Positions 48 to 5,357 of a stretch of 5,357 nucleotides of DNA are shown here, in pieces; position 1 is the stretch's first letter, and each line of letters starts with the position of its first letter. Origin of the DNA: Candidatus Iainarchaeum sp. (lineage in GTDB: Archaea; Iainarchaeota; Iainarchaeia; Iainarchaeales; CSSED10-239); contig JAQVTI010000028.1 in assembly GCA_028700115.1 (NCBI GenBank), forward strand, positions 1 through 5,357. Reading direction: 5' to 3'. The notes under the pieces were generated by a model that was not told where the DNA came from, made no database searches, and saw nothing but the letters and a program-made list of their open reading frames with translations. The position numbers and the translations under genes were made by a program.

Positions 48-150
48 AAGGACTAGAGATTAAGATTAAGTGTTTTCTGTTGTTTTATTTTCTGTAGATG
101 AAACAAAAGGACTAGAGAAAGATTAAGAATTTTCTGTGGTTTTTTATTTT
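48..150. repeat. Two tandem degenerate copies (period 59 nt) of AAGGACTAGAGA..GATTAAG..TTTTCTGTKGTTTT..ATTTT
   Basis: AAGGACTAGAGA is exact at 48-59 and 107-118. It is followed in both copies by GATTAAG and TTTTCTGT(T/G)G plus a T-run (copy 1 48-91, copy 2 107-150), about 80% identical after two small indels. A weaker third copy of the T-rich part lies at 11-27. Confidence 0.7.
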
Positions 151-1184: not shown

Positions 1185-1284
1185 AGTTGAAATAAATCTT
1201 AATATTTAAAAATTAAAAATAAACCATTTCTCTCTATCTTCTATTAACATAAACTTATAAATTCTAATAATACCTAATAAATAT

Positions 1285-2142
1285 ATGATACACTACTTTC
1301 AATACTTGACACAATTAGATTTAATTAAAAGTATTTTAAATAAAAATAAAGAAAATTCAAGAATTGCAATAATTTTAATGGATAATTGTATAGAATTAGT
1401 GCTTACTAATTATATATCTCAGAATTGTGGAAATGAAATATTACCGTATGATTTTAGTAAAAAGTTAGAAATCGCCAAAATACATAAAATTATAGATGCG
1501 GAAATGCAAAGTGTATTTTTGTTATACCACCATTATCGTAATATATTACAACACACAGGAGACTCTAAATCAGATTATATTTATAATAATTTAGAATTTT
1601 ATTTTAATAAAATTGTAGATACAATAACTAATATAGATAACAAAAGATTTTCTTATGAAATGAGAAATAAAGAATATAAAGCTCTATTTGAAAAATATAA
1701 TTCTAAACCATATACCGACTCTTATAATTACATAAAAGATACTTTTACAAAATTAAAATTCGTTTGTGAGAAATCAGATATACGAAATAACCTTAAAAAT
1801 ATGTTAAAAGAATTAATCGATAGTTGGAACGAACAGAGTAGTATGGCTTATGGAGTCAGCAAATTCCAAAATACGTCTGAATGCCTTGTTTATTGTTTTA
1901 AAAATCATTACAAAAAAGAAAATAAAGACTATATCTCCAAATTCGAGAAATATATTAAAACTGTAGATAAAATTAATTTAGAATTTAACAAAATTGATAC
2001 AACACAGAATAGTTTTTTTAATGACGTGCTACAATTAGAAACAAAAGTTCTATTTTTACTGGATTTAACTTATCCTGCATTTTGTTATATTAATTCTCAA
2101 ATTGATATGCAAATAGATAGGATTAGATTAGGCGAAGATTAA
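1285..2142 (+). CDS. Hypothetical all-helical protein with an N-terminal HEPN-like domain (Rx4H motif RNILQH)
   Basis: 285-aa ORF with ATG and TAA. LYHHYRNILQHTG (R85..H90, nt 1537-1554) matches the HEPN R-[N]-x3-H signature and is preceded by helical segments (IILMDNCIELVLTNYI). No SD-like element. TTATAAAT lies at 1255-1262, about 27 nt upstream. The coding call is solid; the function is tentative. Confidence 0.6.
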   Translation: MIHYFQYLTQLDLIKSILNKNKENSRIAIILMDNCIELVLTNYISQNCGNEILPYDFSKKLEIAKIHKIIDAEMQSVFLLYHHYRNILQHTGDSKSDYIYNNLEFYFNKIVDTITNIDNKRFSYEMRNKEYKALFEKYNSKPYTDSYNYIKDTFTKLKFVCEKSDIRNNLKNMLKELIDSWNEQSSMAYGVSKFQNTSECLVYCFKNHYKKENKDYISKFEKYIKTVDKINLEFNKIDTTQNSFFNDVLQLETKVLFLLDLTYPAFCYINSQIDMQIDRIRLGED

Positions 2143-3001: not shown

Positions 3002-3073
3002 TTTTGTAAAAACTCAACTTTTTCTCAAAAATCGTCAATTTCACAAAATTTGAGAGGTTTTAAAATTGTTTTG
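3002..3073 (+). repeat. Intergenic direct repeat, copy B (72 nt)
   Basis: TTTTGTAAAAACTCAACTTTTTCTCAAAAATCGTCAATTTCACAAAATTTGAGAGGTTTTAAAATTGTTTTG starts 7 nt after the ORF3 stop and ends 35 nt before the mrr ATG at 3108. Confidence 0.85.
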
Positions 3074-3107
3074 TTGCAGTTATAATATATAATAAAATGT
3101 GATTAAT

Positions 3108-4013
3108 ATGATTCCAGACTTTCAAGAATTAATGCTACCGCTACTTAAATTATTAAGTGATAAAAAAGAACACAATTTCTTAGATTTAATAAATATATTA
3201 AGTGATCAATATAAACTTACAGAAGAAGAAAAAAGTGCAAAGACAAGTGCTGGATTTACAATAATTGATAATAGAGTTGGTTGGGCAAAAACTTATTTAA
3301 AAAAAGCGAAATTATTAGAATATACTAAAAGAGGGTATTCTCAAATTACTGATAGAGGATTAGAAGTACTTTCTAAAAATCTTACGAAAATAGATGTTAA
3401 ATTTTTAGAACAATATGAAGAATTTAAAGAATTTAGATATATAAAAAATACAGATCAACCTCTTTCAACTACAAACATAGCAATCAATGATTCATCTTGC
3501 CAAAGTAAAACTCCTATTGAATTAATGGAAGATGGTTATAATTCAATTAATGCAAATCTAAAGCAAGAGCTATTAGATAAACTAAGAGAATATCCACCTG
3601 CTTTCTTTGAAAAAACAATATTAAAGTTATTAGAAAAAATGGGTTATGGTAAAGGAGAAGTTACTGGTAAATCAGGAGATGGAGGAGTTGATGGTATTAT
3701 TTACCAAGATAAACTAAAACTAGAAAAAATATATTTACAAGCAAAACGTTTTGCAGAAAACAATCCAGTAACTGCACACATGGTTAGAGATTTTGTTGGA
3801 GCATTAGAAGTAAATGGAGTAAATAAAGGAGTTTTCATAACAACTTCTAAATTCCCAAGAGATTCTTTAAGTAACATAAAAAGTCAAAAATCAATAAAAC
3901 TAATAGACGGCTATGAACTAGCAGACTTGATGATAGAGCACAATCTAGGAGTATCTATTGAAAATACATTTGAAATCAAGAAAATAGATTTAGACTTCTT
4001 TGATGAAGAATAA
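3108..4013 (+). CDS. mrr: Mrr-family type IV (modification-dependent) restriction endonuclease: N-terminal winged-helix (Mrr_N-like) plus C-terminal PD-(D/E)xK Mrr_cat domain
   Basis: The track ORF begins at GTG 3099. ATG 3108 (MIPDFQELMLPLLKLL, a typical Mrr N-terminus) has TGTGAT 4 nt upstream. The C-terminal FFEKTILKLLEKMGYG..TGKSGDGGVDGIIYQDKLKLEKIYLQAKRF...VRDFVGAL...KGVFITTSKF...IKLIDGYELADLMIEHNLGV is the canonical Mrr catalytic core (nt ~3678-3746). Confidence 0.9.
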   Translation: MIPDFQELMLPLLKLLSDKKEHNFLDLINILSDQYKLTEEEKSAKTSAGFTIIDNRVGWAKTYLKKAKLLEYTKRGYSQITDRGLEVLSKNLTKIDVKFLEQYEEFKEFRYIKNTDQPLSTTNIAINDSSCQSKTPIELMEDGYNSINANLKQELLDKLREYPPAFFEKTILKLLEKMGYGKGEVTGKSGDGGVDGIIYQDKLKLEKIYLQAKRFAENNPVTAHMVRDFVGALEVNGVNKGVFITTSKFPRDSLSNIKSQKSIKLIDGYELADLMIEHNLGVSIENTFEIKKIDLDFFDEE

Positions 4014-4525: not shown

Positions 4526-4818
4526 TCAATCACAATTTCCTTTTTCCCATCTTTAATCCCATTAAAGATAAGATTATACTCATTTTCACTTAATTCAACC
4601 AAATTTTGATATTTATTATCTTCTTTAAGTAAAGTAAACTTATCTTGTAATTGTTTAGCAATTAATCCTTTTAGAGATAATAATACTGGTTTTAATTTAA
4701 CTTGATAAGGATATTTCTTTTTCCAATTATTAAATTCATCATTAACTAGTTTTTCTGCTTCAAATATTCCAAAGACTATCCCTTGTCCAAAATAAACAAC
4801 AATATCTCCTATAGATAT
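4522..4818 (-). pseudogene. Start-less 98-codon open frame, probably the 3' remnant of a gene (tentatively PUA-like/EVE-like beta-barrel protein)
   Basis: Manual translation: ISIGDIVVYFGQGIVFGIFEAEKLVNDEFNNWKKKYPYQVKLKPVLLSLKGLIAKQLQDKFTLLKEDNKYQNLVELSENEYNLIFNGIKDGKKEIVIE, stop TGA at 4524-4522. An in-frame TAA (4821-4819) lies immediately upstream. There is no in-frame ATG, and the only in-frame GTG/TTG codons are a few to ~30 codons before the stop. No N-terminal continuation exists in any frame further upstream. ATGA overlap with the next gene. Confidence 0.45.
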
Positions 4819-4968: not shown

Positions 4969-5241
4969 ATATTTTAAACTATAATCTAGAATGAATTTAA
5001 TTTTTTAGACATAAAATGACACAAAAGATATTAATAGACTTTAATTTTTATGTTATTCCTTTTATTATAATTATTAAATACCTAAACTTCTAATCTTAGA
5101 TACACTACTTTACAAAGATAGCATATTTTACCCACTTGTAAAAAATCTTTTTTTTAGTTATTGTTTAAAATTAGTTATTTTATACTTAATATAGACTTAT
5201 AAACACTTTTCAGTAAATAAAGACAGAAGCAAAAAGAAAGT

Positions 5242-5314
5242 AAGACTTGGAAGAAATATTCTGTGGTTTAAAGAAAATGATTAAGATGAAAAGAAAGATG
5301 TTTTTGTTGTTTTT
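5242..5314. repeat. Copies related to the 5'-end repeat family
   Basis: AAGACTTGGAAGAAATATTCTGTGGTTT (5242-5269) resembles AAGGACTAGAGA..AATTTTCTGTGGTTT (107-142), and the 11-mer TTCTGTGGTTT is exact at 132-142 and 5259-5269. GATTAAGAT...GTTTTTGTTGTTTTT (5279-5314) resembles GATTAAGATTAAGTGTTTTCTGTTGTTTT (64-87). Confidence 0.5.
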
Positions 5315-5357
5315 AAATTAAATTATTAATCTGCTCTTTTATTTTAATGATGGTATC

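Follow-up and report, generated by a model that had tools for sequence, protein, structure and literature searches.

What does a 285-aa protein with a single RNase-like motif do in an archaeon with a genome of about 1 Mb? We address this question for ORF2, an open reading frame (ORF) in a 5,357-bp stretch of DNA from Candidatus Iainarchaeum sp. (NCBI GenBank assembly GCA_028700115.1, contig JAQVTI010000028.1). This stretch, which we call the window, is the whole of contig C37 in an assembly of 0.96 Mb, 47 contigs and 22% GC in which a full-length archaeal small-subunit ribosomal RNA is present (1365 bits). An initial annotation had read the ORF2 product as a HEPN-family RNase-like effector with a novel C-terminal extension. 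Our analysis indicates that ORF2 encodes a two-domain, all-helical protein of an unnamed family within the HEPN superfamily (Pfam clan CL0291), and that this protein most probably acts by itself as an immune or toxin RNase, a reading to which we assign a probability of roughly 0.65.

1285 to 2142 (stop codon included), forward strand: ORF2 coding sequence, ATG to TAA, 285 aa, protein P0001.

The reading frame is open over 285 aa, as the initial annotation stated, and the other frames contain no overlapping ORF of 40 aa or longer. Its start codon is supported because homologues align from residue 1. The segment LYHHYRNILQHTG does occupy residues 80-92, and R85 to H90 lie at nt 1537-1554, at the positions first given for them. 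This is the sole Rx4-6H motif in P0001. Shuffled versions of the protein contain Rx4H in 14% of cases, Rx4-6H in 36% and RNx3H in 1.5%. The motif alone is only mildly unusual and, given these frequencies, weak evidence.

Is the motif conserved in relatives of P0001? Scans of P0001 against Pfam, PADLOC, NCBIfam and PHROGs returned nothing relevant, a word-indexed search of 5.8 billion proteins returned P0001 itself only, and the genomes of 60 relatives gave chance-level matches only. Two relatives, P0002 (301 aa, 41% identity, E 1e-38) and P0003 (E 3e-5), came from an exhaustive phmmer search of 1.84 billion representatives. Combined with P0001 into a profile, they recovered P0004 and P0005, and the resulting five-sequence profile recovered 37 proteins, mostly of about 335 aa and without a precomputed Pfam domain. 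A metagenome scan then contributed 80 further loci, and a scan of genome contigs confirmed only one locus because its confirmation step used the divergent P0001. With near-duplicates removed, the alignment (A6) holds 92 sequences, so the family has at least 92 non-redundant proteins. Their source contigs range from 32 to 71% GC, with a median of 60%. The family carries no name in Pfam, NCBIfam, PADLOC or PHROGs, and no PADLOC or NCBIfam match recurs among the 92 members.

Two blocks of this alignment stand out.

1528 to 1554, forward strand: catalytic-type motif H82-x-Y84-R85-N86-x-x-x-H90, at the C-terminal end of helix 3; family consensus HRYRNxAYH.
1360 to 1395, forward strand: helix-2 signature R26...L31-x-D33-N34-x-x-E37; family consensus RxALLLLDNAxE; may supply the conserved acidic residue of the HEPN active site.

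In the motif, N86 and H90 are invariant (92/92 each), R85 and H82 are each kept in 91/92, and position 84 is Y or F in 91/92. The upstream block is conserved to a similar degree, with R26 in 88/88, D33 in 90/90, N34 in 84/90 and E37 in 89/90, and two residues near the C-terminal end are widely shared (D278 in 80/88, R281 in 73/86). The family signature can be written RxALLLLDNAxE ... HRYRNxAYH(R/K)D. Because the motif is conserved across 92 homologues, its occurrence in P0001 is meaningful and goes beyond chance. The initial annotation had made its claim depend on conservation of R85 and H90 in homologues, and that conservation is nearly complete.

The predicted structure of the N-terminal part of the protein is that of a HEPN domain. 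AlphaFold2 (AF2) run on the single sequence was uninformative, with a predicted local distance difference test (pLDDT) score of 37. Given alignment A6, it produced a model (m2955da5b99ff) with a pLDDT of 90.6 and a predicted template modelling score of 0.88, in which P0001 is all-helical with a break near residue 120.

1285 to 1644, forward strand: predicted HEPN domain, residues ~1-120, from AF2, Foldseek and the hhalign comparison with DUF4145.
1657 to 2139, forward strand: family-specific all-helical C-terminal domain, residues ~125-285, from AF2 helices and family conservation.

The first four helices are predicted at residues 2-20, 22-47, 72-91 and 96-116; residues 48-71, which separate helices 2 and 3, form an insert that holds a short helix at 57-66. 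The ~35 extra residues of the bacterial members, which make up the bulk of the family, fall exactly in this insert. HEPN domains are defined as four-helix up-down bundles in which an insert separates helices 2 and 3, helix 2 holds a conserved acidic residue near the motif, and Rx4-6H closes helix 3, its R directly followed by a polar N, D or H (PMC3710099). The model has the predicted bundle and insert, R85-N86-x3-H90 lies within the helix at 72-91, and D33 and E37, conserved in 90/90 and 89/90 members, sit in the predicted helix at 22-47. The four-helix bundle that the initial annotation looked for is therefore predicted, over residues 2-116 of the model with pLDDT 90.6. Its placement of the motif at the start of a helix does not hold, since the motif ends helix 3 in the model, as the published definition has it. 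D33, N34 and E37 of helix 2 would be the likely acidic or polar partners in the active site.

Searches with the model point in the same direction. Among Foldseek matches in the PDB, only HEPN proteins combined a low root-mean-square deviation (2.7-3.7 Å) with target-normalised template modelling scores of 0.64-0.76, namely the HepT structures 6m6u and 7bxo, together with 1wwp, 1wty, 8xeh, 8xdj and 8yuf. These superpositions covered 116-133 columns; MtlR was also listed, and the remaining PDB matches were long, poor superpositions of helical proteins. The Foldseek output came without aligned query residues, and we assign the fold match to residues 1-120 because of the profile result described below. 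Foldseek against the viral structures of BFVD returned nothing. At the sequence level, P0001 matched only PaREP1 in the PDB (E 0.46, residues 177-233), which we take as noise, and the family profile gave only coiled-coil noise against PDB sequences.

To which HEPN proteins is the family closest? In a Pfam scan of the 92 members with E up to 1, DUF4145 was the sole recurrent family (13/92, best E 7e-4), and HEPN_Swt1 gave weak matches in 3/92. We built a comparison profile from 35 bona fide DUF4145 domains taken from genomes and aligned. Against it, the N-terminal domain of the family (residues 1-125) gave an hhalign probability of 92.6% (P 4.6e-7) over 79 columns, in register at the motif: N86 falls on N, H90 on H and H82 on a conserved R. 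Controls failed to reproduce this match, with 0.2% for the reversed DUF4145 profile, at most 2.4% for column shuffles and at most 38% for block shuffles. The same domain gave 0.1% against HepT and 2.5% against Swt1, the latter with the RN...H motif in register. Between known families, DUF4145 against HepT gave 0.3% and DUF4145 against Swt1 84.8%. The HepT negative is thus uninformative on shared ancestry, because the comparison of DUF4145 with HepT fails as well. Profile probabilities of 75-98% have been used to define HEPN families (PMC3710099), and 92.6% falls within that range. Of the three HEPN families compared by sequence profile, DUF4145 lies closest.

The resemblance does not amount to membership. 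The best profile match, DUF4145 (PF13643; the "DUF4145-like" group of Anantharaman et al. 2013), occurs in defence and restriction-modification (R-M) contexts, as does the ORF2 family. Its motif is R-x2-G-N-x3-H, whereas that of the ORF2 family is H-x2-R-N-x3-H. The family thus has H82 at the place of the DUF4145 arginine, and the canonical R85 precedes N86; helix 2 reads D-N-x-x-E in the ORF2 family and R-x-x-L-E in DUF4145. P0001 also does not reach the PF13643 gathering cut-off of 23.1 bits. Because P0001 misses this cut-off and the motif differs, we regard the family as a separate one in the DUF4145-like part of the superfamily, best treated on these sequence comparisons as a sister family of DUF4145. 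Small DUF4145-like proteins in related DPANN genomes (loci L087, L088 and L090) carry an unusual version of the motif, HKIRKNGNxxxH.

Conservation of the motif, the predicted fold and the DUF4145 profile match with its failing controls all support the HEPN membership that the initial annotation claimed. It had named in advance three computational results that would speak against this claim, namely no link to HEPN families, no bundle and no conservation of R85/H90, and we obtained none of these.

The rest of the protein is specific to the family. Seven helices follow the break at ~120, and the last of them spans 38 residues (244-281) and has a conserved I-D-x-x-I-D-x-x-R end. This domain of ~160 residues matched nothing in Pfam, among PDB sequences and folds, or in BFVD. 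The novel C-terminal extension described in the initial annotation is therefore real, conserved across the family and without a known match. We considered a second, degenerate HEPN domain for this region and rejected it, as hhalign gave 0.4% against DUF4145 and 0.2% against the N-terminal domain of the family itself.

How might such a protein work? Cas13, Csm6, many toxin-antitoxin (TA) pairs and an increasing number of single-gene immune systems have HEPN RNases as their effectors. By analogy, the ORF2 protein would most likely be a metal-independent HEPN endoribonuclease, activated once a pair of HEPN domains makes up a composite site. The protein could act as a single-gene immune or toxin effector that stays silent until an invader-derived signal appears, with the C-terminal domain serving as a sensor or oligomerisation module that gates or assembles the protein. 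RNA cleavage, dimerisation, latency, a trigger, a role for the C-terminal domain and a defence phenotype are what we infer for ORF2 from such comparisons.

A characterised mechanistic parallel is RAZR, which joins a zinc finger to a DUF4145-type HEPN domain in a single-protein RNase that is non-toxic until phage proteins activate it (PMC13017515). Both RAZR and ORF2, as we read it, are single-protein effectors joined to a separate sensor domain. The conserved R of DUF4145 that aligns with H82 corresponds to the catalytic R146 of RAZR, so the family has a histidine where RAZR has its arginine. The layouts also differ: RAZR has an N-terminal Cys4 zinc finger and a C-terminal HEPN domain, whereas ORF2 has an N-terminal HEPN domain followed by a helical domain of 160 residues, and P0001 contains no zinc-ribbon match or Cys4 pattern. 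The Ishtar anti-plasmid proteins are monogenic, with an N-terminal HEPN domain (DUF4145 or DUF3644) and a C-terminal domain of unknown function, and they are patchily distributed near other defence genes (bioRxiv 10.64898/2026.07.06.735840). Likened by description only, ORF2 shares with Ishtar a single gene, an N-terminal HEPN domain with an uncharacterised C-terminal domain, and a patchy distribution. The C-terminal domain of Ishtar consists of beta-sheets and three helices, whereas that of ORF2 is all-helical in the AF2 model.

Other HEPN proteins resemble ORF2 in fewer respects. HepT/DUF86 and HEPN-T toxins (6m6u, 7bxo, 8xeh, 8xdj, 1wwp, 1wty) are the best structural matches to the ORF2 model, and HepT-type toxins share with the family an Rx4H-type motif ending helix 3. 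However, HepT modules have an adjacent MNT antitoxin gene and ORF2 has none, and the ORF2 protein is twice the size of HepT, with an extra C-terminal domain. The family has no Pfam match to PF01934 (HepT), which together with the hhalign value of 0.1% excludes membership only, not shared ancestry. AbiJ, AbiU2, AbiV, Abi2/Swt1-like proteins and RnlA/LsoA share with ORF2 the logic of a stand-alone HEPN effector with a family-specific accessory domain. Their accessory domains are unrelated to that of ORF2, though, no PADLOC Abi model matched recurrently, and Swt1 reached 2.5%. PrrC and RloC fuse an N-terminal ABC-type ATPase to a HEPN nuclease, whereas P0001 is 285 aa of helices only, with no ATPase domain match.

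The genes around ORF2 belong to a defence island. An Mrr gene lies two genes downstream.

1255 to 1262, forward strand: candidate archaeal TATA box TTATAAAT, ending 23 nt before the ATG of ORF2, as read from the sequence.
3099 to 4013, forward strand: intact Mrr-family type IV restriction endonuclease with Mrr_N and Mrr_cat domains; PADLOC mREase_IV, 1e-60.

The last 127 nt of the window (5231-5357) are the first 127 nt of contig C28, and an independent NCBI contig with the ORF2 gene continues 142 nt into C28 sequence. Because of this overlap and this contig, C37 and C28 are adjacent, and together the window and C28 form a defence island of ~12 kb. The C28 part (L199, G000:C28:1-6935) encodes a 598-aa protein with a C-terminal RNase_HII-family Pfam domain, a 252-aa DUF2321 zinc-ribbon and Hypoth_Ymh (HEPN clan) protein with a RAZR-like layout, a partial AAA_21 ATPase, and a 312-aa Guanylate_cyc nucleotide cyclase followed by a 137-aa ORF. 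The cyclase and the 137-aa ORF are possibly Pycsar-like.

A 63-nt direct repeat, 87% identical between its copies, stands at 2200-2262 and 3002-3064, ahead of ORF3 and mrr. This promoter-like repeat is absent in front of ORF2, where the TATA box would make a leaderless, independent transcript possible; TATA-like strings are common in DNA of 22% GC. Copies of the 63-nt repeat also occur in contigs C28, C41 and C15 of the same genome (G000), and a related genome has a 98% identical copy (G009:C14). A family of 30-nt direct repeats, AGATTAAGATTAAG...TTTTCTGTTGTTTT, occurs twice near the left end of the window (57-143) and once near the right (5284-5313). These repeats bracket the gene row and may mark the limits of the island or form one more shared regulatory module. 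The segment at 4575-4813, upstream of a 169-aa gene with two transmembrane segments, has a 78% identical copy at C1:9253-9491 and copies of 68-75% in two genomes of the same genus, and is a conserved element, not spacer DNA.

Elsewhere in the family, at L133:2-1990, P0002 starts at the base right after the stop codon of an HsdM-like N6_Mtase gene. This suggests co-transcription with a type I R-M system; the organism is another AT-rich one from the same sample series. At L131:3325-5941, the gene of a 577-aa UvrD-like SF1 helicase precedes P0004 by 20 nt, and the two may form a helicase-HEPN two-gene unit. Neighbours of bacterial members include Shedu SduA (2/148 scanned), HEC-04, PD-Lambda-3_B and PDC-M05B, as well as mREase_II, TIR_2, AbiJ_NTD3, integrases and a resolvase. 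This neighbourhood is suggestive of defence, and only that.

Does ORF2 need a partner? Clustering of 323 neighbouring ORFs gave no group present in more than five loci, and no conserved small ORF was found within 600 nt on either side of the family loci. A nucleotidyltransferase domain is absent from the window ORFs and from the recurrent families among 148 neighbours (top 25 of 80). The initial annotation was thus right that ORF2 has no MNT-type antitoxin partner, given that no NTP_transf_2 occurs in the window or in these recurrent families. It went on to propose control by the neighbouring winged helix-turn-helix protein (ORF1) or by the ORF3 product, and this part did not stand up: no neighbour is conserved across the family. 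Since ORF2 is stand-alone in this sense, control by ORF1 or ORF3 is not supported.

The distribution of the gene is that of a rare, horizontally moving accessory gene. The family profile found it in one of 215 genomes of its own phylum, which is the ORF2 genome itself, and among 251 sampled Planctomycetota only in the seed genome. A search for ORF2 DNA in 21 genomes of its taxonomic family was negative, while promoter-like repeat modules of the window are shared. A scan of viral contigs gave no relatives.

Several observations weigh against an immune or toxin RNase of the HEPN superfamily. With E as high as 10 allowed, P0001 by itself still matches no Pfam model of the HEPN clan, and the DUF4145 matches of family members are weak. 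The Foldseek E-values of 0.3-2.5 are insignificant alone, and a four-helix bundle is a common shape. A very long branch (stem 3.35) leads to P0001 and P0002 in the family tree, and both have lost R177 and E259, polar residues of the C-terminal domain that the bulk of the family keeps. Finally, the defence link of bacterial members is anecdotal, and most of their neighbours are ordinary genes.

Four other explanations have to be set against these data. ORF2 could be a guard nuclease of the PrrC kind, linked to restriction: held in check by Mrr (by HsdM in the case of P0002) and freed when an invader disables the enzyme. This would be a special case of the stand-alone immune RNase, with a defined trigger. 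P0002 abuts the N6_Mtase gene without a spacer, P0001 lies two genes upstream of mrr, and fusions or shared operons with R-M systems are frequent for DUF4145-type HEPN domains (PMC3710099), a linkage that favours such a guard. However, no R-M family appears among the recurrent neighbour families listed (top 25 of 80; 148 neighbours, ~67 non-redundant loci), PADLOC shows a single mREase_II match, ORF3 and the promoter-like repeat stand between ORF2 and mrr, and P0001 lacks the ABC-ATPase domain of PrrC and RloC. We therefore regard a guard nuclease as unlikely. Many HEPN proteins are type II or VII toxins, and ORF2 could likewise be the toxin of a two-gene TA pair whose antitoxin is an unrecognised product of ORF1 (333-1184) or ORF3. 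ORF1 is co-oriented, ends 100 nt upstream of ORF2 and has a weak PHROG match to a CII-like regulator (E 0.012). What makes this pair quite improbable is that no other family member is accompanied by an ORF1 or ORF3 homologue. P0002 follows HsdM and P0004 follows the UvrD-like helicase, and the neighbour clustering, the search for small ORFs and the search for an MNT partner were all negative.

The remaining two explanations concern the domain itself. Some HEPN domains are non-catalytic substrate-binding modules, and such domains typically lose Rx4-6H (PMC3710099). The ORF2 protein could, on this precedent, have a HEPN-like fold without being a nuclease, and serve in nucleotide or ligand binding, in scaffolding or as a housekeeping RNA-processing factor. 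Yet the motif that non-catalytic domains tend to lose is near-invariant here, and the rare, patchy distribution and the defence-island context speak against a housekeeping role, so that a non-nuclease is improbable. That the motif arose by chance in a lineage-specific helical protein with no HEPN kinship finds some footing in the shuffles, 36% of which contain Rx4-6H, in the failure of P0001 alone to match any HEPN model and in the single-sequence pLDDT of 37. It is barely tenable against conservation in 92 homologues on contigs of 32-71% GC and against fold and profile evidence that converge on HEPN while the negative controls fail. A stand-alone immune or toxin RNase is the explanation that we favour.

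What would such a protein add to our view of HEPN effectors? The family extends a well-known HEPN theme and is not a new principle; what is new, relative to the libraries searched, is the family, its signature and its C-terminal domain. It is not covered by Pfam (2025), NCBIfam (2026), PADLOC (2023) or PHROGs, and it has a signature of its own and an unmatched C-terminal domain. What it offers in practice is modest, namely a profile for annotation and tractable bacterial candidates for defence screens. For the organism, the finding means that a DPANN archaeon of ~1 Mb keeps three or more different HEPN-type proteins in one crowded island. Outside CRISPR and R-M, archaeal immunity has been poorly charted. 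A bolder proposal, which we put forward tentatively and consider somewhat doubtful, is that the family is a new single-protein immune sensor-effector common to bacteria and a DPANN archaeon, a HEPN RNase gated by an invader-recognising helical domain of 160 residues, and that the AT-rich archaeal clade of P0001 and P0002 was recruited beside restriction systems. If this is true, the C-terminal domain would be a new trigger-recognition module.

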